A stretch of 64,000 nt of DNA from a virus (Duplodnaviria; Caudoviricetes), in IMG/VR virus record IMGVR_UViG_3300047160_014082, positions 19,028 through 83,027 of that record. The stretch is one strand, 5' to 3'. The notes below the pieces were generated by a model. The model was not told the DNA's origin. It saw nothing but the letters and a program-made list of their open reading frames with translations, and did not search any database. This document shows, in pieces, positions 2,878 to 54,982 of this stretch. Made by a program: the position numbers and the translations under genes. Numbering within the stretch: the stretch's first letter is position 1; every line of letters starts with the position of its first letter.

Positions 2878-3087
2878 ATGGTCATCGATCATCATAGTGT
2901 CGTCGGCGCGGCCATAAGTGTTCCGCCTACTGCGGAATTCATCCTGGCGGTTCCCCCCATTGGTGGGGGTGGCGTTGGCCTGGGCGGACCCCCGACCTAC
3001 CAGCCCCCCGTCAAACAAGCCAGTAGCTCGCCGGCAACGATTACCCTTCAGGCCAGCTCCCGAGTAATCGACGTCCCGCCGGTTTGA
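2878..3087 (+). CDS. Hypothetical protein
   Basis: ATG 2 nt after the upstream stop; Pro/Gly-rich 69 aa. Confidence 0.45.
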   Translation: MVIDHHSVVGAAISVPPTAEFILAVPPIGGGGVGLGGPPTYQPPVKQASSSPATITLQASSRVIDVPPV

Positions 3088-3141
3088 TATATTGATTTGC
3101 TATTGCCCTAAATTCGCCCCTTCGGGTAGGGTAGTCTTCGA

Positions 3142-3408
3142 ATGCCGAGTTGGATGTTCGATACAAGGGGCCGGATTGTGGAAGAGAAGCAGGACAAAAG
3201 CCTTCTGGAGGGTATGGAAATCAAGGAGAGCCCGAGCTACCGGGAAGCCATGGGTAAGGCGCATGTCATCCAGGAAGCGGGTATCAATGACGTAGATTGG
3301 GCCGTTGTTGGGCACTGCCCAAAGTGTGGCTGCCCGATCTACGGACCCAAGGTGGTCCCGGCGGGGCGGATCCCCACGCTTCACAAGAGCTGTACTTGTT
3401 GCGTATAG
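3142..3408 (+). CDS. Small protein with CxxC zinc-binding motifs
   Basis: CPKCGCP and CTCC motifs. Confidence 0.5.
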   Translation: MPSWMFDTRGRIVEEKQDKSLLEGMEIKESPSYREAMGKAHVIQEAGINDVDWAVVGHCPKCGCPIYGPKVVPAGRIPTLHKSCTCCV

Positions 3409-3794: not shown

Positions 3795-3989
3795 ATGAGT
3801 CAACAGGGCGTCACCATCTTCATTGCGGGGCCGGAACGACACGAGCGCTTGCGCGAGTTGTCCCTGCGCACGGACCTAAGCATGGCCGAATGGATGCGGC
3901 GAATGCTGGATCATTGCCTGGCCGAGCCGGTGTTGAACCAGCTGGCACCGGCCTGGTCGGGACAATTAAATAATCGGGAGGTCCGTTAA
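3795..3989 (+). CDS. Ribbon-helix-helix (CopG-like) DNA-binding protein
   Basis: VTIFI strand, then HERLRELSLRTDLSMAEWMRRMLD helix pair. Confidence 0.55.
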   Translation: MSQQGVTIFIAGPERHERLRELSLRTDLSMAEWMRRMLDHCLAEPVLNQLAPAWSGQLNNREVR

Positions 3990-4654
3990 TGCCCGGTAGT
4001 TGGGAACTGATGCAAAATGTTCAAGTACAGTGTTATACATTGCACACCGAGCTGACAACCCTGGCTTGGTCTTACGGCTGGCGCAACCTGATCATCCCGG
4101 GCAACCTGGCGCCTCTGCCTACGACAGGGATGCCTTTCGACCATGCCCGCAACGACGCTACCCAGCATGCCCTGAACGTTGGCGCCGATTGGATCTTTTC
4201 GCTCGACTCGGACGTGATCCCACCCCATGATGCTCTTATACGGTTGATCGCCCGCGGTCTACCGATCATATCGGGAACCTATCATCGGCGCTCCCCTCCC
4301 GAAGGTGTTCCGGTAGCCCAGAAAAACGGCCAATGGTTTGTTCATCCCCCGGCGAACAAGATTGCCGAAGTCGATGTTGTTGGTGCCGGCTGTCTACTGG
4401 TGCATCGCAGCGTATTCGAGAAGCTGCCGTACCAGCGACCGAAAGAGGGTAAGAAGTGGTTCGATTGGCGTGTGGACAAGCGCGGCCTGGAACCACCCGG
4501 CGCGTCCATGAGTGAAGATTTCACCTTCTGCAACTGGGCACGGATGCACGGTTACAAGATCTATCTGGACCTGTCCGTGCAGTGCCGTCATGCGGGCTCT
4601 GCCGAAGCAACCTACGGTCAGCTCAAACCCCTACAAACCCTTTCGGTGACCTGA
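3989..4654 (+). CDS. GT-A fold glycosyltransferase (GT2-like)
   Basis: ARN...WIFSLDSDV (DxD), VGAGCLLVHRSVFEK, SEDFTFC. Confidence 0.85.
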   Translation: MPGSWELMQNVQVQCYTLHTELTTLAWSYGWRNLIIPGNLAPLPTTGMPFDHARNDATQHALNVGADWIFSLDSDVIPPHDALIRLIARGLPIISGTYHRRSPPEGVPVAQKNGQWFVHPPANKIAEVDVVGAGCLLVHRSVFEKLPYQRPKEGKKWFDWRVDKRGLEPPGASMSEDFTFCNWARMHGYKIYLDLSVQCRHAGSAEATYGQLKPLQTLSVT

Positions 4655-35622: not shown

Positions 35623-38562
35623 ATGCCGATCATCTGGAACCAAAACACCGCTTTTGAACTCAGCTTTAACGGGATCCCTTTCTTTGCTGATGATGCCAAA
35701 GCCTACCGCATGCCCAGCAAGGTATCGGACTACATAGGCCAAGAACGCTCCCCCGTCCAGCAACAGCAGCCCCTGGAAAACCTGGTCGAAGAATTAGACC
35801 GGCTGCTGCCGTTCCGCTACCTGGACGACTACTATGAGGTGGCGTCCTTCCCCGGCCGTAATCTGGCTGGTATTGCGCGGCAGACTGTCGATGAGTACAA
35901 GCTTAATCCGGAAATCAAAATAGGAGAGTTCTTTTATCCCAATGGTGCTTCGCGCTGGAGCGTGTTTCGTGGCCTGATGACCAGCAGCCAGGTACGGGCG
36001 CTGATCCGCACGACCCAGCTACCGATGACCAGCGGCAGCTATTCGACGTCGGGACAACGAGCCGATTCTTTGGGCAACGTCCCGGGTATCTTCCACATCA
36101 AGGCTCTGCCTCTGATCTTTGCACCCAATACACCGCAAGACGCTCTCGGAGCTGCCCCCTATTCGATCATCACCAATATGTACATGCTGCCGCCGCGGCC
36201 CCTGGCGGAACATGGTGGCAACTTCGATGGCCTGTATCTTATCACCCTGGTTGATGAGCGCTTTTGGTGGCAATTCTCCCCCGTGAGCCTGATGGCTCCT
36301 CAATTTCCGCACGACGCTTTCGATACGCTACTAGCACGCCTGACCATCGGCGAATCGAGCTGGCAACAGATCTTGTTCTCCCTGGCCGAAGCTCTGGGGA
36401 TCTTTCTCTTGCTCGATCCCATCGACCCGGCCTATGTCGTACCGGAGCGGGATTCACCGTTCTGGTGCAACTACGAGAACGCTGCCCAGCTGCTGGACGC
36501 GGTAGCGGCTAATGTCGGCGCCGTGTTCGTCCGGAAATTCAACGGCACCTACATTCTGCGCAGCACAACTCAATCTATTTCCACGGTGCAAACCAACCTG
36601 GCCGAGCTGGGCGGGATTGTCACCAGTGGACTTCAGCGCCTGCGCACGGCCGGCGGGGACTTGTTCTCGCCATCGGGTAGTGCCTTACCCGTGGGGGATC
36701 TGACGACGGCGCGGAACTTTGCCATCCCGGCCAGCGTTACGGTGACCTTTCCGAGCTACGTTTACAACGATGCTCCTGTACCTCACTTCTACAACAAACG
36801 CACCATGCCCCCGGATGCTACCCTCTGGCATCAGGAGAGCTTTGGGGGTGTCTGGCCTCTTACAGTTGGTATCAAGTCTGGGGGGCCGTATGTCTCGGGT
36901 CTAGGCGGGACCGGACCGCAACAATCGGGATGGTTGATTTCCGGAGTGACTGGACTGCCCATTGATTTCTCGGGTGGTTACTCCGTCGTCCTGCGCACCA
37001 CGGCCAAGGCGCTGTTCTCGGGGGAACGGGCTTGTGAGCCGGCTTCGGGCTTGACCCATCTGGACGTCCATCCGGCCAATGAAAGCGGCTTGACTGCTCT
37101 GGCAACGGCCCTGGCAGTCAACTACTACACAACCCAGGTTGCCGTAGCTCTGGACGAAGTATTTCCCGGGACCTTTCTTTGGGATCCGGAGGGCTTTCAC
37201 GATCTGCTTTACACCTACTCACCAAGGCAAAGACTAGCGACGACGCGGGTGATGCGCAGTCAGCCCTGGAATCAGAAAGTAGAAGAGTACCAATACGGCA
37301 CACCCCCCTTTAGCGGCTTCGGGGGCACGGTCAAAGGGGTGGGTGGTCCCTTGCCAGCGCAGAGCTGGACGGACAAGGATCGCCTGAGCGGCACCTACGC
37401 CCAGGGCTCGGGCTTCTGTGCGTCGGGGGGTAGTGGACTGATCTTTACCACATTGGCCAACAACTACTTCTCGGGGACGTTCACCTTCATCTTCGTGGAT
37501 GAAGAGACCGAAGCCATTGCCGTTGCTGCTCAGGACTACTTTCCAACGGGAAATCGCTGGAAAGGCCAGATCCTTAGCAACCTGTACCAGGATATCAGTC
37601 TGGCCATCCAGTACAGCGCTACTATATCGGGCTATTGCAATAGCGGTGTACTGGTCTCGGGGATTGACCTAGGGGATCCGAATATCCAATCTGGATATGT
37701 CATAGAGAATTTGTTGTTTGAGGGCACCAGCGGCGGCCGGAATCTGGTAGGGGGTGCGCAGAATCCTCCCTTCCTGTCCATCTACTGGCGCGGTATCGAC
37801 GGCACCAAGCCCTTCCCGATTCATCACAGCGGTGCCATCCTGACCATGATCAACCCGAACACGATGTACGGGGCCAACGTGGTCAAACACGGCAAGATGC
37901 AATACTCGTTCCCGGACGATTGGACCGCGGGCGGCGCCAAGGCGGTGCATGTCGTGCCGCAAATGCAGACTGTGCGCGTCCATAGCGAAAGTGGCATTTA
38001 CATCAACAACCTGCGTCACTACTCGGGGGCCGTATATGCCTACGATACCGCCCAGCGTAGCAGGAACATGTCCGGCCTGTTCACCAGCGGCATAAGTCCT
38101 GTATCTGGCTGGCAAGGCTTATCTGGACAAGTCTACGGAACCGATCCGCATGTTAGCGGCCTGCCCAAACAAGAGCCCTGTTGGATCGTGGAGCGCAACA
38201 ACTACCCGCTGACGTCGGGGATCTATTATGATGGTCAGCTCGTGGGCTATAGCGCCAAGTTCTCGGGGATTCTGGCTTCCGACGAGAGTGGGGGAGCTGT
38301 CTTCCCAGGCACAAATACCCAGGTCGGCAGCGGTAACTATGTGCCTGGCACGGCCATATCGGGCACGGCCCCTGTCTACCTGGTCAACTGGGATCCCCCC
38401 GAAGTGCAGATGGTGCGCATTGTCGGCCCGGGGGATTTTGGCTTTCTGGATGCTTACGTACAAAAGCCAAAGGTCGATCCCGTTACGGGCATCTGGAACG
38501 GTACTGATTGGGTGGATGTGGAACGAATTCTCTTCCAGGATGCGAACTTCACTGGTGGGTAG
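35623..38562 (+). CDS. Large tail/baseplate protein, SG-rich
   Basis: 979 aa; about 36 SG dipeptides; tail module position. Confidence 0.55.
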   Translation: MPIIWNQNTAFELSFNGIPFFADDAKAYRMPSKVSDYIGQERSPVQQQQPLENLVEELDRLLPFRYLDDYYEVASFPGRNLAGIARQTVDEYKLNPEIKIGEFFYPNGASRWSVFRGLMTSSQVRALIRTTQLPMTSGSYSTSGQRADSLGNVPGIFHIKALPLIFAPNTPQDALGAAPYSIITNMYMLPPRPLAEHGGNFDGLYLITLVDERFWWQFSPVSLMAPQFPHDAFDTLLARLTIGESSWQQILFSLAEALGIFLLLDPIDPAYVVPERDSPFWCNYENAAQLLDAVAANVGAVFVRKFNGTYILRSTTQSISTVQTNLAELGGIVTSGLQRLRTAGGDLFSPSGSALPVGDLTTARNFAIPASVTVTFPSYVYNDAPVPHFYNKRTMPPDATLWHQESFGGVWPLTVGIKSGGPYVSGLGGTGPQQSGWLISGVTGLPIDFSGGYSVVLRTTAKALFSGERACEPASGLTHLDVHPANESGLTALATALAVNYYTTQVAVALDEVFPGTFLWDPEGFHDLLYTYSPRQRLATTRVMRSQPWNQKVEEYQYGTPPFSGFGGTVKGVGGPLPAQSWTDKDRLSGTYAQGSGFCASGGSGLIFTTLANNYFSGTFTFIFVDEETEAIAVAAQDYFPTGNRWKGQILSNLYQDISLAIQYSATISGYCNSGVLVSGIDLGDPNIQSGYVIENLLFEGTSGGRNLVGGAQNPPFLSIYWRGIDGTKPFPIHHSGAILTMINPNTMYGANVVKHGKMQYSFPDDWTAGGAKAVHVVPQMQTVRVHSESGIYINNLRHYSGAVYAYDTAQRSRNMSGLFTSGISPVSGWQGLSGQVYGTDPHVSGLPKQEPCWIVERNNYPLTSGIYYDGQLVGYSAKFSGILASDESGGAVFPGTNTQVGSGNYVPGTAISGTAPVYLVNWDPPEVQMVRIVGPGDFGFLDAYVQKPKVDPVTGIWNGTDWVDVERILFQDANFTGG

Positions 38563-47151: not shown

Positions 47152-47802
47152 TTAGCTTGCAGCCGTATTCTGAAATCGAGGCCAACTAAGAGCCGACTTC
47201 CAACAAGCAACCATGGTTCTTAATTCTTCCCAAGTGGCATTGTTCTTAATGGTATTTGCCCGATAGCTGATGACCCACACGTTCCCAGGAATGTAGTCCT
47301 TCAAAGGGTCGATCCGATCTACCGAAGCCGTAAATCTTCTCCCATACCCGCGTGCTCCTCTACCATAAATAAGTTCTACTCCAAGCAGAGGGCAAACTTC
47401 AGGAAGAGGAAGCAAATCGCCAACCGAAATTGTACACTTCATTCCTTTCTTAGCAGCAGACTTTCTACACCCCCTAATAGCCTGCTTGGCCCACATTTCA
47501 GGAATCTGCCGCACCCTTTCTCTCCATTTCTCTTGAGCCCGTTTGTTGCTCCTAGCTGTATCGGCACGCTCGGCTCTGTAAGCAAAGCTGCATTCTCTTG
47601 AACAAAACTTTGGGGTCTTGCGCTGAGCCTCCGAATCGGATCGCTCGAACTTATTCTTACAGTATTCACAGAAAAAAGTCCGAAAGCTGGTCCGTATGGA
47701 TTCCCAATAACACTCAAGGGAGCAGTACACAGCAGCTTTCGCAGGTTCTCCACAAGTCGGGCAAAGTTTTCTTTTAACTTTTTTCTCCCTAAAAACTTTC
47801 AT
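47152..47802 (-). CDS. Zn-finger HNH-like (His-Me) endonuclease
   Basis: YCSxxC repeats; CPLLG...SVDRIDP..DY.PGNVWVISYRANTIKN; AT-rich. Confidence 0.8.
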   Translation of the reverse strand: MKVFREKKVKRKLCPTCGEPAKAAVYCSLECYWESIRTSFRTFFCEYCKNKFERSDSEAQRKTPKFCSRECSFAYRAERADTARSNKRAQEKWRERVRQIPEMWAKQAIRGCRKSAAKKGMKCTISVGDLLPLPEVCPLLGVELIYGRGARGYGRRFTASVDRIDPLKDYIPGNVWVISYRANTIKNNATWEELRTMVACWKSALSWPRFQNTAAS

Positions 47803-47915
47803 TTTTTACCTCCAGGGATCCATTCCTCCCGGCCATCGGGCAGCTGAAACAGAAAAGCCTTGCTGGTAGACCGAAGGATTTTTTCCACTTCGATGTAGAC
47901 CCATTCATCAGGCAT
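47799..47915 (-). pseudogene. N-terminal fragment of the split small gene
   Basis: MPDEWVYIEVEKILRSTSKAFLFQLPDGREEWIP followed by GGKK*. Confidence 0.55.
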
Positions 47916-48252
47916 CGAAATTCTCCAGTTTGATGGATTCCATACGGTATTGCCAGGTTTTCCGTTTCCCGCGCTTGCCCTTCTTGGCCCAGCTGACGAT
48001 CCAGATGAGTCCTCCATGTTGTAGCCAAAGCTTGGCACGTGGCTCGGCGAGAATCTTTTTCCGCCGAGCCACGTGGTTCGTGCCACTGGTAGCTTGGACA
48101 CCAACAATACTGGTAGCGTCCAGCACAACCAGATCGATGAAGCCAAACAAATCCTGGCGCACGCGCGCATGGGGGTTCCAGCGCTCGACAATAGCGACCG
48201 TCCAGCCGTTCTTGCGAAACAATTCCAGAGTTCGTTGTGTAGGGCTGGACAT
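47908..48252 (-). CDS. PD-(D/E)XK nuclease (resolvase/VRR-NUC-like)
   Basis: QRTL...GWTVAIVE...DLFGFIDLV...VQAT. Confidence 0.7.
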   Translation of the reverse strand: MSSPTQRTLELFRKNGWTVAIVERWNPHARVRQDLFGFIDLVVLDATSIVGVQATSGTNHVARRKKILAEPRAKLWLQHGGLIWIVSWAKKGKRGKRKTWQYRMESIKLENFDA

Positions 48253-48254
48253 TT

Positions 48255-48740
48255 TTACTCTTCCACAACAGCATCAATGGCTTCGATCACCGCGGCGAAT
48301 TCATCCAGATGAGAAATGCGCAGGCGCACCCCCTTGAGCAACCGTCGTGCCTCGTTGAGAGCCTGTTCGCGTAGATCACTATTGGTCATGACCGTTTCAA
48401 CCGGAAGATAGCCGCGGCCATCTTCCGTGGTCACGCACAGATAGGCGGCGCACATCTTTTTGTCGCCTTGCTGGTCTTCATAGACCAGCCGGCAGCAGTG
48501 GATGATGCTCCGGGCCTGGTGCTCTTGCCAGCGCCGCGCGGCTCTGTTTTTGTTCCAATCAATCAGCTCATGGGCAGGGGAGCGGGGATCCTTGGCTTCA
48601 TCAACGAAGCGCGAGGCGCTGACCTGTCCGTCCCGCGCCAAGCGGTCGATCATACGTCCAATGGCATTAGCCTCCGCCTTGCCCGGCCGGAAACCCTCTG
48701 CCCATTCCCACTGCTTCTGTTTCGCCTTAGTCGTCGTCAT
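48255..48740 (-). CDS. Uncharacterised protein directly downstream of array 1
   Basis: AAGGGG RBS; SPAHELIDWN..AA..W..HQARSII pattern. Confidence 0.7.
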   Translation of the reverse strand: MTTTKAKQKQWEWAEGFRPGKAEANAIGRMIDRLARDGQVSASRFVDEAKDPRSPAHELIDWNKNRAARRWQEHQARSIIHCCRLVYEDQQGDKKMCAAYLCVTTEDGRGYLPVETVMTNSDLREQALNEARRLLKGVRLRISHLDEFAAVIEAIDAVVEE

Positions 48741-48762
48741 GATGTTCCCCTTCTTGCTGTCT

Positions 48763-48791
48763 AAAAGGGGGAGGGCACCAAAGCCCTCCCC
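48763..48791 (-). terminator. Intrinsic terminator at the 3' end of array 1
   Basis: Minus strand GGGGAGGGC-tttggt-GCCCTCCCC followed by C and TTTT. Confidence 0.7.
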
Positions 48792-48804
48792 GAAACCAAA
48801 GGTG

Positions 48805-49828
48805 GCAAGACCCGCCGGAGCCCGTCTAGCCTTGCCTTGACGCCCCATGTCTTGGAAAACCAGCTAGACAGGTCTAGCCGTGCCAAGACTCGGCATGGTG
48901 AGCCAAGTAAAACCAGCCATGTTCAGACCTGTTCGGTCCGGACTTGCCGTGCCTTGTAAAACCTGCCGAGACCCAACGAGACTTGGCCGGTCCTGGACAG
49001 CCACCGCGCTCCCAGCCGAGTCGTGTAAAACCAGCCGGACAGGTCTCGGCTCGTCTTGTCTCTACTCCATGTGCCTAGCCGTGTAAAACCGGCCTGGGCG
49101 CGTCTTGTCTCGTTCTGCCTAGACGATGCTTGCCCTGTAAAACCAGCCAGGCCGGGACTAGCACCGGCCGGACCCGGCTCGACTAGGCTCGCCCTATCTT
49201 GTTCAACACATCAGGCCTCGTAAAACCCTCTCGACCAGTCTGGCCTTGTCTTACCAAGACACTCGTGGTCCGCCACGCAAAACCGGCCAGGCCGGGACAA
49301 GCCGCGGCCCGCCTTGGCGAGGCTCGGGGTTTCTAGTCTCGTAAAACCTGCCAAGTCAAGACCGTACTTGCCTAGGCGGGGCGCTACATGCCTTGTAAAA
49401 CCGGCCGTAGCTCGACCTGCCGACACCAGTCTTGACGTCCCATGCCTAGTAAAACCAGCCCAAGACATGGCGCGCCATGTCGCCTCTTGCCCAGACTCGT
49501 CTCGTAAAACCTGCCTGGACATGCCGCGGCCCGTCCTGACGCTGACGACCCGTGACACACCTCGCCTAGAAAAAGTAAGGCCAGACAGGACTGCCCTTGG
49601 CAGGCCCAAGCTTGTACAGCCCTGTCTAGCCGTGCCGAGTAAAACCTGCCGAGACCCGGCTTGCCTTGCCTAGGCCCTACCCGGCCTGTCTTGACGCTAC
49701 CAGCCATGTAAAACCGGCCTGGGCGCGCCATGTCTCGACTAATCAGGTCTCTACTCGCCTTGTAACATCCCAGCTTGGCCCGACGAGGCTCAGCGCCCCG
49801 TGGCATAACCGGACCAGGAAGACAACAA
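48805..49828 (-). repeat. Array 1 of NN-G(G/N)Y pentamer units, each closed by GGTTTTAC (about 17 units); putative guide-like ncRNA array
   Basis: Plus-strand anchor (G[T/A/C/G]AAAACC) at 48854, 48907, 48956, 49025, 49083, 49137, 49220, 49277, 49341, 49395, 49449, 49504, 49639, 49708; degenerate copies at 48805, 49569, 49762. Spacings are mostly 49/54/64/69 +/-1. Confidence 0.9.
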
Positions 49829-50551
49829 CTACAGCCCTTGCACTTGCCACAGCCCCAGATCCCCGGTGTTGCTCTCGGGAGAAGAGGGGCGCATTTCGCA
49901 CACCCCGACATTCATACCGGCCCGGGCGCACAGATTCATCAAGTGCTCCAGACTCAGGATGTCGGCATCGAAGGAAATCCGCAGCCGGGCCGCCCATTCG
50001 GTGTATTCGGCTCGGAAGCGCACATCCGCTGTGCGCCCGTTGTTGATTCGTACCATGTCCTCGCGCATGTGTGGTTTGCCGTCGATCAGCACACAGCGCA
50101 TGCCCTCGGTGCTGATGAAATTGAAACGCACGAAGAACAGTTGCTTGGCGAAGGTCATGGTCAGATCAGGCACAAAACGGCAGGCCTGAACCATCGCATC
50201 CTTGAACGCTCCAGCCGGGACGCCGTGTTCCCCGCGCGGGCCGCGGTACATGCTGGCTTCGTAGCACGCCTCCGGATCCTTGAACTCCTGCTTCACCACC
50301 TTTCCCATCTGCTTGGCCAAAATCATTTCCCGAGCCTTGGCATCCCAGGCATGGGTGACCAGGGGAGTGATACCGACGATATCGATGTGAGCTTCCAGAC
50401 GGCGCGGCTTGGGGATGACGATCCCTGTCATCTTCTCCGCCTTCTTGGAAGGCGGCTTCTTGGCCTTGCCGTTGCCATTAGTGCTTGGAAGGACCGCTTC
50501 CAGACGATTTGTCGCTTCGACCTTCTTGCTCGTCTTCTTGCTCGTAGCCAT
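49829..50551 (-). CDS. RAMP/Cas7(Csm3)-like protein between the two arrays
   Basis: IDIVGITPLVTH first strand; GVPAGAFKDAM (cf. IPGSSLKG); C-terminal Gly loop GMNVGVCEMRP...GDLGLWQV. Confidence 0.7.
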   Translation of the reverse strand: MATSKKTSKKVEATNRLEAVLPSTNGNGKAKKPPSKKAEKMTGIVIPKPRRLEAHIDIVGITPLVTHAWDAKAREMILAKQMGKVVKQEFKDPEACYEASMYRGPRGEHGVPAGAFKDAMVQACRFVPDLTMTFAKQLFFVRFNFISTEGMRCVLIDGKPHMREDMVRINNGRTADVRFRAEYTEWAARLRISFDADILSLEHLMNLCARAGMNVGVCEMRPSSPESNTGDLGLWQVQGL

Positions 50552-50574
50552 GATGTAACCCTTTCAATTGAAAA

Positions 50575-51281
50575 AACAAACCAAGACTCGTTCACACATT
50601 ACGGCACATGCCTCTTCTCGTCCCTGCCCGTCATGTAAAACCAGCCATGTTCTGTCGGTTCACCTCCAGGCCTCATAAGCCATGAAAAACCGGCCCTGTC
50701 CTGGCAAGACGTGCCGGGACTTGTTCTGCCTGACCTTGCCTCGAAAAACCTGCCCAAGTCTCGTCATGCCGATACAGCGCTCGTTCCAGCCAGTCAGTAC
50801 AGACCCGGCCCAGTAAAACCTGCCGTGACATGGACTGCCGGTTCGCGCCCAGACTACCTGGGCCATGTAAAACCCGTCCTCGCCACGGCTCGGCCACACC
50901 CTTCCTAGCGCTACCGGTCGCGTAAAACCGGCCGTGTCAGGTCTGCACACGCCGACACAGTACGGGACGATCCTAGTAAAACCGGCCGTGTCATGTCATC
51001 GCTAGCCACCTCCTATCCAGACCATACGAGTAAAACCCTCGCGACACGCGGCTAGCCCTAGCTTGCCAGCGCCCGCCAGAACGCCCCTAGCCGTGTAAAA
51101 CCGGCCGTGCCTTGGCGCCGTCTCGCCCCGTCTCGCCATGCCCTGTCCCATCGCGCCATGTAAAACCTGCCTTGACTAGGCTGGACGATGCAAGTCCAGG
51201 CCTGATATGCCACGTAAAACCGGCCGCGACTTGGCCGGACATGCCCTCACAGAACCTGCCGATACAGGCCGGGAAAAACTC
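50575..51281 (-). repeat. Array 2 of NN-G(G/N)Y pentamer units (about 13 units)
   Basis: Anchors at 50635, 50684, 50743, 50813, 50867, 50922, 50976, 51030, 51095, 51160, 51214; degenerate at 50575 and 51273. Spacings 49, 59, 70, 54, 55, 54, 54, 65, 65, 54. Confidence 0.9.
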
Positions 51282-53390: not shown

Positions 53391-54680
53391 TCATTTACGG
53401 GCACGCCGGCCGGGCTTCTTAGCGGCAGAGGGTTTCTTGAAGGGTTTTTTGCCATTGCGCTGGGGCTTGGGAGCCTCTTCGTCCACGTCCTCCTCTTCCT
53501 CGAACGACTCTTCTTCGTCACCTTCAGAGTCATCGTCGTCCCCAGAATCGTCATCGTCACCTTCAGAATTGTCGTCACCTTCTTCATCCTCACCCTTCGT
53601 GTTGTCGTCATCAGTCTCCTCGTCCTCCGACCCTTCTTCCTCTTCTTCCACCTCGTCCAGATCGTTGGGAGCGACGGCGCGCAGGACCTTACCCTTAGCG
53701 CTCTTGAGGGTCAGGTTGGTGCCATCAGGGCTGATCTTGATGACCGTGTATTCCTTGCCCTTGTACTGGACTTCATCGCCCTTGTGGATGTTCAGATCGC
53801 TAGCCGTGGGCTCAGTCTCCTCTTCCTCCCCACCACTTTCCGGGTCTCCCGTCTCGTCGTCGTCGTCGGTGTCTTCGGGCTCGCCGGCTTCGTTGTCCTC
53901 CCCCTCCTGATCCTCGTCGCTTCCCGTCTCGTTCTCCGTCTCGTCCACACTGCCTTCCTGGTACATCTTCTTGATGACATCGTAGGGCAGACACACAATC
54001 AGATCGTCCAGACATGGGACCTCCTGCAAAAGTGCAAGTCCAGGAGGCTTGCGCTCGGAGAATTCAATATCCACCACCTTGGCGAAGGGCCGGCCGCCCT
54101 CAAAGGAAGCGTTTTTGGCGGAAATCTTGACGCGCTTGCCCCCCTGCGGATCGTAGAAATGGTCGTAGCCATCGTCGGGATCGGACAAGTTGAGCTTGTC
54201 TGCCATCTGGGCGCCGAAGTTGAAATGGGCCATATTGATGATTTCAATAGGGCCAAACGTGCCGTCTTTGATGTAATAATCGCGCCAGGCGCACAACTGC
54301 CATTTCTTGGTCTTGAGGCTCTCAATGGCCTCTTCGTCGGCGCCGGAGCGAATCATCTTTTCCCGGTCGTCGCATAGCGGGCATTTCTTGCCGCAGCACA
54401 TTTTGGGACAGGCGATGGTGGCGTTGCCGATGCCCACGCCCGGATGGATCCAGTAAGTACGCTCGTAATTTAACGAGCCTTCTTCAGCATACGGGTTGAA
54501 CTTGCCGACGACATAGGCCAGTATGTCCCCGCGGTAACTCTTGCCTGCTTCAATTTTCTTGAAGCTGAACCCTTGCGGCAGCTTAACGGCCAGGCGGTTG
54601 CCGGAAACCATCTTGGCGGCGCTCTCGCGCGCGGATGTCAGTTTGTACTGACGTTCGGCTTGTTTGTTCTTTGGTGCCAT
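53391..54680 (-). CDS. gp32-like single-stranded DNA-binding protein with long acidic tail
   Basis: YWIH...CPK..GKKCPLCD; very D/E-rich C-terminus; next to recA. Confidence 0.75.
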   Translation of the reverse strand: MAPKNKQAERQYKLTSARESAAKMVSGNRLAVKLPQGFSFKKIEAGKSYRGDILAYVVGKFNPYAEEGSLNYERTYWIHPGVGIGNATIACPKMCCGKKCPLCDDREKMIRSGADEEAIESLKTKKWQLCAWRDYYIKDGTFGPIEIINMAHFNFGAQMADKLNLSDPDDGYDHFYDPQGGKRVKISAKNASFEGGRPFAKVVDIEFSERKPPGLALLQEVPCLDDLIVCLPYDVIKKMYQEGSVDETENETGSDEDQEGEDNEAGEPEDTDDDDETGDPESGGEEEETEPTASDLNIHKGDEVQYKGKEYTVIKISPDGTNLTLKSAKGKVLRAVAPNDLDEVEEEEEGSEDEETDDDNTKGEDEEGDDNSEGDDDDSGDDDDSEGDEEESFEEEEDVDEEAPKPQRNGKKPFKKPSAAKKPGRRARK

Positions 54681-54715
54681 AATGCTACAGATCCTTTCGT
54701 GATGTAAAGAGAAAA

Positions 54716-54982
54716 CTACTGCTGGTCTTTGTAGTGAGGTTCTTCGACCCGGCATTTGATATTAGCACCCACATGGGGGCCGGAATTCATCACCCCGTCC
54801 ATTTGACTTATCAGCCGGTCGATTTCATCGAACAGGTTTTGCTTGGCTTTCTCGTGGGCGGTGCGGGCCTTCTCCTGATCGAGAGGGTTACTCTCGCCGG
54901 CCCAGGATAGTCGGATGGCCGCTTCGCTATAGATCAGAGCGAGCCCCTTGATCTTGTCCCCAAGTTTATTCTTTCTTCTCAT
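54716..54982 (-). CDS. Hypothetical protein
   Basis: ATGA overlap with the upstream gene. Confidence 0.5.
   Translation of the reverse strand: MRRKNKLGDKIKGLALIYSEAAIRLSWAGESNPLDQEKARTAHEKAKQNLFDEIDRLISQMDGVMNSGPHVGANIKCRVEEPHYKDQQ

Follow-up and report, generated by a model that had tools for sequence, protein, structure and literature searches.

Why should a phage encode a Cas7-like protein with no other cas gene near it? This question is raised by an open reading frame in a 64-kb stretch of DNA (the window, all 64,000 nucleotides of which were analysed) from an 83-kb IMG/VR virus record, which a first-pass annotation had described as a stand-alone Cas7/Csm3-like RAMP protein, possibly acting by binding or blocking rather than by cutting. 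Here it is argued that positions 48255-51270 of the window, on the minus strand, very probably constitute the complete locus of a VIPR (Viral Interference Programmable Repeat) system (bioRxiv 10.64898/2026.04.26.720920) in an uncultivated phage, arranged in the order array A, vipr, array B, terminator and vap. The assignment is made because Vipr is flanked by pentamer arrays and accompanied by a vap gene, an arrangement that is conserved across related loci. VIPR represents a newly described, programmable and PAM-free form of dsDNA recognition, and has been proposed as the ancestor of CRISPR RAMPs; the window locus would provide a well-delimited natural example, with a double array that is unusually large, at about 25 guides.

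The RAMP protein and its relationship to SUSP1 Vipr

The vipr gene (49829..50551, minus strand) starts with ATG and encodes a minimal RAMP (Cas7-like) protein of 240 aa, in which the motifs quoted in the first-pass annotation are present exactly as described (HIDIVGITPLVTH at residues 55-67, GVPAGAFKDAM at residues 110-120 and AGMNVGVCEMRP...GDLGLWQV at residues 211-238). Residues 48-240, which comprise an RRM core, a thumb hairpin and the G-loop, are folded with confidence in the predicted structure (mean pLDDT 80, most blocks 80-97), and this predicted fold is that of a Cas7/Csm3-type RAMP, in agreement with the initial assignment. The basic and probably disordered tail of about 45 aa that had been noted ahead of this core was also recovered, as codons 1-45 (50417..50551, minus strand) encode a lysine-rich N-terminal extension with 11 K/R against 3 D/E that is modelled as disordered (pLDDT 39-51, mostly below 50); N-terminal extensions are variable among homologs in a 16-member family alignment. 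The only family match obtained in the searches of Pfam, PADLOC and PHROGs was PHROG 4652, of unknown function, with no match in Pfam or PADLOC. The further claim that the window holds no other cas genes or CRISPR repeats was borne out by Rfam, PADLOC and tandem-repeat scans of the 64-kb window, in which CRISPR repeat families, other Rfam families and long tandem repeats were all absent and no Cas or defence HMM in PADLOC matched Vipr or its neighbours.

The first lead to the identity of this protein was a weak PDB sequence match to the 'SUSP1 Vipr protein'. When the comparison was repeated with a profile of the 16-member family, PDB 36pp_D (SUSP1 Vipr) was matched with an E-value of 9.2e-9, while hhalign against the SUSP1 coding sequence (KT454805) gave a probability of 97.6% and an E-value of 3.7e-12 over 68 columns, and the two single sequences aligned in pairwise BLASTP with an E-value of 2e-5. 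By sequence comparison, then, the window protein is a homolog of SUSP1 Vipr, and the homology is statistically solid. The beta1 motifs of the two proteins correspond (ITGTRPFLSH17 in SUSP1 and IVGITPLVTH67 in the window, with H17 equivalent to H67), having in common the strand pattern G-(T/I)-x-P-h-h-x-H, and in the hhalign alignment R138, D177, W178 and R179 of SUSP1 are placed opposite R180, E219, M220 and R221 of the window protein. Among the positions that contact RNA in SUSP1, H67, R180, E219 and R221 are conserved in the window protein, and W178, which stacks on G2 in SUSP1 Vipr (VIPR preprints, bioRxiv 10.64898/2026.04.26.720920,.720927, 2026.10.15.759431), is replaced by M220. Across 165 family members this position is occupied by W in 57%, G in 20%, H in 6% and M in 5%, and the closest relatives of the window protein (P0002 and P0003, 63% and 55% identical to it) are both of the M type. 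The Vipr family as a whole is very large in metagenomes, with 7,241 cluster representatives at 50% identity being detected at E <= 1e-3.

Vipr has been described as a minimal RAMP that is encoded mostly by phages (bioRxiv 10.64898/2026.04.26.720920,.720927, 2026.10.15.759431), where long intergenic regions flanking vipr encode vrRNAs of 9-16 GGY/NN pentamers (bioRxiv 10.64898/2026.04.26.720920). Each pentamer is bound by one Vipr protomer, which sequesters GGY and exposes NN, and the NN steps pair with dsDNA such that every third target base is skipped (VIPR preprints, bioRxiv 10.64898/2026.04.26.720920,.720927). Transcriptional silencing of competing phages and satellites is attributed to the filaments that Vipr forms on vrRNAs, and seven VIPR types have been distinguished, which differ in array architecture and in their accessory vap genes (vap1-6) (bioRxiv 10.64898/2026.04.26.720920). 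By analogy with the homologous SUSP1 Vipr, which acts by RNA-guided DNA binding and transcriptional silencing, the window protein would be expected to bind or block rather than cut, as the first-pass annotation had suggested.

Pentamer-repeat arrays on both sides of vipr

The window Vipr is not stand-alone, because period-5 repeat arrays fill both of its flanks; vipr belongs to a three-part locus, the other parts being the pair of guide-RNA arrays and an accessory gene that is conserved. A check of the flanks for 5-nt periodicity, which had been proposed at the outset, was strongly positive on both sides. Of the 266 positions in the 64-kb window with a high phase-aware period-5 score, 258 are located in these flanks, which are without clean ORFs, and the 74 highest are there without exception. 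The phase-aware score was used in place of a 100-nt Fourier scan, which is blurred by a register slip of -1 per unit. One period-5 outlier elsewhere, at about 42755, was considered as a solo vrRNA and was ruled out as T-rich coding sequence.

Array A, upstream of vipr (50585..51270, minus strand), starts directly after the stop codon of a UvsX-like gene and consists of one untagged leading unit, which follows a GGCAG boundary, and 11 units tagged at their start with GGTTTT(A/T)C. Array B, downstream of vipr (48800..49828, minus strand), has 13 tagged units and a last unit whose tag is degenerate (GGTTTTCC, at about 48861), and is closed by an intrinsic-terminator-like hairpin (48764..48791, minus strand) with a 9-bp GC stem, a 6-nt loop and TTTT; this hairpin, which was read directly from the sequence and scores below the T-run rule of the terminator scan, supports a defined transcript. 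Together the two arrays hold about 25 head-to-tail units of 10-14 pentamers each, on the same strand as vipr. The layout of a unit on the minus strand is GGTTT-TACNN-(GNCNN)n-GGCNG, where the last G doubles as the first G of the next unit, and units that are in frame are accordingly 49, 54, 59, 64 or 69 nt long, equivalent to 10-14 pentamers with a shared boundary G.

The 8-nt tag at the head of each unit, GGUUUUAC, is invariant in 22 of 24 units. For the sequence GTAAAACCNGCC, 22 of the 23 matches in the window lie in the flanks of vipr, against 1.1 expected, and these 22 copies, found between 48907 and 51225, are every one on the plus strand; a logo anchored on them keeps a strict 5-nt register for 45 nt on one side and 30 nt on the other. 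The arrays are not uniform throughout: of the 22 units with a tag at both ends, 9 depart from the 5n register or carry indels, and one unit has lost its tag and extends over 135 nt. No known RNA family, ribozyme or structured 3' tail was detected in the arrays by Rfam or from the unit layout, and a search of IMG/VR for arrays of the GGUUUUAC tag yielded, among the matches listed, only chance singletons and unrelated tandem repeats (e.g. L177). A short GC hairpin (CCGGCC...GGCCGG) ends a few units directly before the TTTTAC or TTTTGC of the next tag; such terminator-like hairpins within the arrays are seen at 51238-51220 and 49295-49283 of the window (minus strand) and are not conserved across units.

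The 111 internal pentamers, read on the minus strand, have G at position 1 in 90% and C at position 3 in 76%, with no preference at position 2 (G 28%, T 28%, A 24%, C 20%) and N at the last two positions, and a phase-independent measure of the array windows likewise finds the signature G-n-C in 96% and GG in 0%. The canonical GGY trinucleotide is thus absent as a rule from the internal pentamers, and GGC or GGT occurs at boundary pentamers only. These non-GGY pentamers do not exclude the locus from VIPR, because the preprints allow 'a related consensus' besides GGY, describing internal degeneracy of vrRNAs as frequent (bioRxiv 10.64898/2026.04.26.720920), and report non-canonical motifs. Variation of this kind has in fact already been described, since 21 clusters of Vipr-associated non-canonical arrays have been reported with GAC/NN, CAC/NN, WGT/NN and one-position-degenerate motifs (bioRxiv 10.64898/2026.10.21.760802, October 2026).

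The internal logo alone does not reveal the strand of the arrays, since the complement of G-N-C falls in the same class. The minus-strand call is instead based on three lines of evidence, namely the boundary pentamers, which read GGC or GGT on the minus strand only; the related loci, in which the array is always gene-sense and GGY-NN, with a GGCAG boundary where one unit has only four bases; and the terminator-like hairpin after array B, which is on the minus strand.

Proposed mode of action and target search

Reasoning from SUSP1, the arrays would be transcribed on the gene strand and processed into about 25 vrRNAs of 50-70 nt, on which Vipr would assemble as a filament with one protomer per pentamer, the G-N-C trinucleotide being held and the variable NN exposed. 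The 8-12 NN steps of such a filament would then pair with dsDNA, leaving out each third base of the target, and the bound filament may block transcription of the target gene, the likely targets being genes of competing phages, prophages or satellites. It may further be, although we put this forward only tentatively and regard it as rather doubtful, that the repeat code has been retuned, with position 2 left unread (G-N-C/NN) in association with M220 and with the 8-nt GGUUUUAC tag serving as a nucleation or processing signal, so that the locus would represent a VIPR subtype whose guide repertoire, at about 25, would rank among the largest, in a large and apparently lytic phage; the role of the tag would in that case resemble that of the 8-nt 5' handle of crRNAs. 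The free middle base and the G-loop without a G2-stacking Trp offer a natural test of how much of GGY Vipr needs, and the seamless staggered arrays offer a test case for the cutting of such arrays into units.

Targets were sought under the rule that a protospacer consists of xNN repeated in guide order. When the phage's own 83-kb record was searched with 0-2 skipped bases, no self-target was found (best 4-9 mismatches, no better than shuffled guides), which fits the absence of VIPR self-targeting as reported in the preprint (bioRxiv 10.64898/2026.04.26.720920). A search of IMG/VR with exact 8-NN seeds from two long guides of the approximately 25 returned 12 and 5 sites, at which the 4-5 held-out NN matched at chance level, and 13 guides compared with both strands of the 4.8 Mb of collected loci performed no better than shuffled guides.

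That these searches found no target could be set beside the degenerate position 2, the Trp-to-Met change, the non-canonical consensus, the out-of-register two-tag units and the 135-nt unit with its lost tag, and taken to mean that the locus is a decaying or non-functional VIPR relic, whose arrays no longer load Vipr productively. We consider this quite improbable, as the vipr and vap ORFs are intact and the contact residues conserved, and the retention of G1 and C3 over 111 pentamers, together with the near-complete invariance of the tag, argues for ongoing selection. Nor are the departures from the canonical pattern peculiar to this locus, in that internal degeneracy is frequent in vrRNAs (bioRxiv 10.64898/2026.04.26.720920) and non-canonical pentamers beside Vipr-like folds form a recurring class (bioRxiv 10.64898/2026.10.21.760802).

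Accessory gene, related loci and comparison with known systems

The candidate vap gene (48255..48740, minus strand) encodes about 161 aa, counted from M37 of a 197-aa ORF that is open to 48848; M37 (window 48740) is taken as the true start because the alignment of homologs places it there, and GAAGGGG is found just before this codon. The product has a weakly winged-helix-like domain and a C-terminal helical hairpin. It matched nothing in Pfam or PADLOC, the PHROGs matched by Vipr and vap are all of unknown function, and hhalign gives its profile a probability of 0.1% against SUSP1 Vap1, so that the two are unrelated in sequence. Just 3' of vap are a 114-aa ORF (47908-48252, minus strand) and an HNH/endonuclease VII-like gene (phrog_3322; 47152-47802, minus strand), both of which are placed outside the system because they never co-occur with Vipr in the 49 related loci described below; the same count of 0/49 was obtained for UvsX. 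The wider neighbourhood of vipr is made up of replication and recombination genes, including those for SbcCD-like proteins, a clamp loader and the UvsX-like recombinase, whose identity to Vibrio phage RecA, at about 25%, is too low to place the host. Also in the window is a 454-aa protein (53391-54755, minus strand) outside all Pfam and PHROG families, which has a Cys-rich motif (CxxC...CPLC) and whose C-terminal half is acidic and very long; judging from its place among the replication genes and its layout of a zinc finger plus an acidic tail, it may be a gp32-like ssDNA-binding protein.

The 49 homolog-bearing loci comprise 9 from IMG/VR, 4 from GenBank phages and 36 from metagenome contigs; a related-locus search with P0002 as query gave no match, and a scan of genome contigs no relative. 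A sense-strand period-5 array is present in about 40 of these loci, mostly 0-150 nt from the vipr homolog (8 of 9 IMG/VR loci, all 4 GenBank phages and most of the 36 metagenome loci), and the loci without an array are mostly short truncated contigs. In 33 of the 49, vipr is followed by a vap homolog. In most relatives the GG signature is seen in 11-100% of array windows, as opposed to 0% in the window, and the only relatives that resemble the window in their non-GG pentamers are L256 and L257 (G-n-T). The L256 array (1905-2260 of Ga0255047_10035869; L257 is near-identical) reads G-(T/N)-T/C-NN, with G-n-T in 82% and GG in 0%, has the usual GGCAG boundaries, and follows a vipr with the G-loop EGRP and a vap. 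The loci that lack the GG signature are both non-Trp at the W178 position, with M in the window and G in L256/257. Loss of this Trp was considered as the explanation for the loss of G2 and is not established, as Cy-LDV1, L264-266 and L275 are non-Trp and yet have GG.

These related loci also bear on whether the flanking repeats act as RNA at all, since they could instead be iteron- or centromere-type DNA elements, that is, double-stranded binding sites through which the encoded protein controls replication or partition (cf. P1 oriR-repA-incA and F sopC). Repeats in the same orientation on both sides of the gene, a spacing of about 54 bp that is close to five helical turns, and the replication and recombination neighbours would all suit such an element, but the protein is a RAMP by its fold and a homolog of Vipr, which binds RNA, and is neither a winged-helix Rep nor a ParB; a 5-nt register with dinucleotides that are hypervariable runs through the repeats, a feature that iterons lack; and the same arrays lie beside homologs in unrelated contexts such as lysogeny modules and tail gene clusters. 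An element of this type is thus very improbable, and an iteron replicon like that of P1 RepA or F RepE was rejected as a candidate, as it needs a winged-helix Rep and iterons of about 19-22 bp, while the window has a RAMP and units of 49-70 nt.

With the flanking repeats read as vrRNA arrays of a VIPR locus, the nearest comparisons among cultured phages are Mycobacterium Cheoctovirus (Donkeykong gp49), Gordonia phages ODay and Pipp, and Cyanophage Cy-LDV1, whose Vipr proteins are 35-39% identical to that of the window. As in the window, the vipr homolog of these phages is accompanied by pentamers arrayed on the sense strand, with GGCAG at the boundaries, and by a homolog of the window vap; unlike in the window, the pentamers are canonical GGC-NN and the units far fewer. 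These phages are temperate, with the locus in the immunity or early region or among tail genes, and their Vipr homologs are all annotated as hypothetical proteins only.

Several gene calls in these phages deserve separate mention. In Donkeykong (NC_051648.1), gp48 (1980-2366 of locus L134, record 36870-37256) lies directly upstream of the Vipr homolog gp49, with the vap homolog being gp50, and is almost wholly occupied by a GGC-NN array (1991-2345), so that it is probably a CDS mis-called over a vrRNA array; about 27 related Cheoctovirus-type mycobacteriophages share this locus. The same is probably true of gene 43 of Gordonia phage Pipp (MN234179.1; L136 3078-3347), which coincides with a GGC-NN array (3075-3306) 3' of gp42, its Vipr homolog. 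The tail assembly chaperone and tape measure genes of Gordonia phage ODay (L135) lie on either side of the VIPR locus, and in Cy-LDV1 (BK059895.1, L137, g34/g33), a phage of Cylindrospermopsis, canonical GGC-NN arrays (3128-3318 and 3903-4072) accompany a Vipr with Gly at the Trp178 position and the same vap family, all annotated as hypothetical. Several actinophage 'hypothetical protein' genes can accordingly be recognised as Vipr, vap or probable mis-called vrRNA arrays.

The class 1 Cas7 RAMPs (Csm3, Cmr4, type VII Cas7 and the Cas7-11 domains) have only their fold in common with the window Vipr, to which they are about 10% identical in sequence and which no Cas7 HMM matches, and the window offers no Cas7/Csm3 profile match, cas genes or CRISPR array. 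Their systems work in a 6-nt register as opposed to the 5-nt register found here. Repeat-mimicking RNAs encoded by phages are known, and the Cas7-like fold in a phage context might on this basis be read as a Cas7-derived anti-CRISPR decoy, with a phage RAMP and repeat-like RNAs poisoning a class 1 CRISPR effector of the host, but such a decoy has next to no probability given repeats unlike CRISPR direct repeats (no Rfam CRISPR-DR match), a register that differs from the 6 nt of class 1 crRNPs, and a closest characterised homolog that is an RNA-guided DNA binder in its own right. VIPR differs from the Cas7 systems also in that its guide is gapped and its dsDNA target is silenced, not cleaved (VIPR preprints, bioRxiv 10.64898/2026.04.26.720920,.720927).

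The closest characterised counterpart of the window locus as a VIPR system is that of Escherichia phage phiSUSP1 (KT454805; PDB 36pp), a type II VIPR with Vipr, Vap1 and four vrRNAs. The two Vipr proteins share the beta1 His, the thumb Arg and the G-loop (D/E)-x-R-P, and in both phages vipr is flanked by long non-coding regions with pentamer guides on the gene strand, a small accessory gene is found downstream, and DNA-metabolism genes adjoin the locus. SUSP1 has four separate vrRNAs of about 100 nt, built of GGT/GGC-NN and each ending in a pseudoknot tail of about 40 nt, whereas the window has about 25 seamless units with the 8-nt GGUUUUAC tag, a 1-nt overlap and no tail; its pentamers are G-N-C and not GGY, W178 is replaced by Met, and its vap is unrelated to Vap1. 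In addition, the window Vipr carries the 45-aa basic N-terminal tail, while SUSP1 Vipr begins directly at strand beta1. With a vap that is not Vap1, and with units that abut without a pseudoknot 3' tail, the window locus stands apart from the SUSP1-like type II.

A further likeness is found in the staggered and non-canonical arrays of the preprints. In 'staggered' arrays there is a 1-nt overlap, where the end of one vrRNA is the start of the next (bioRxiv 10.64898/2026.04.26.720920, fig. S17/S18), and the arrays described as staggered or non-canonical have, like those of the window, head-to-tail units with this overlap, a fixed or partly degenerate trinucleotide with a variable dinucleotide, and a Vipr-like fold beside them. 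Among the examples named in the running text of the preprints there is neither a G-N-C/NN pentamer whose middle position is fully degenerate nor the GGUUUUAC tag. The window locus thus belongs to a kind that was described in the 2026 preprints, and is unusual within it for its G-N-C code, its Met G-loop, its tagged double array and an accessory gene other than Vap1.
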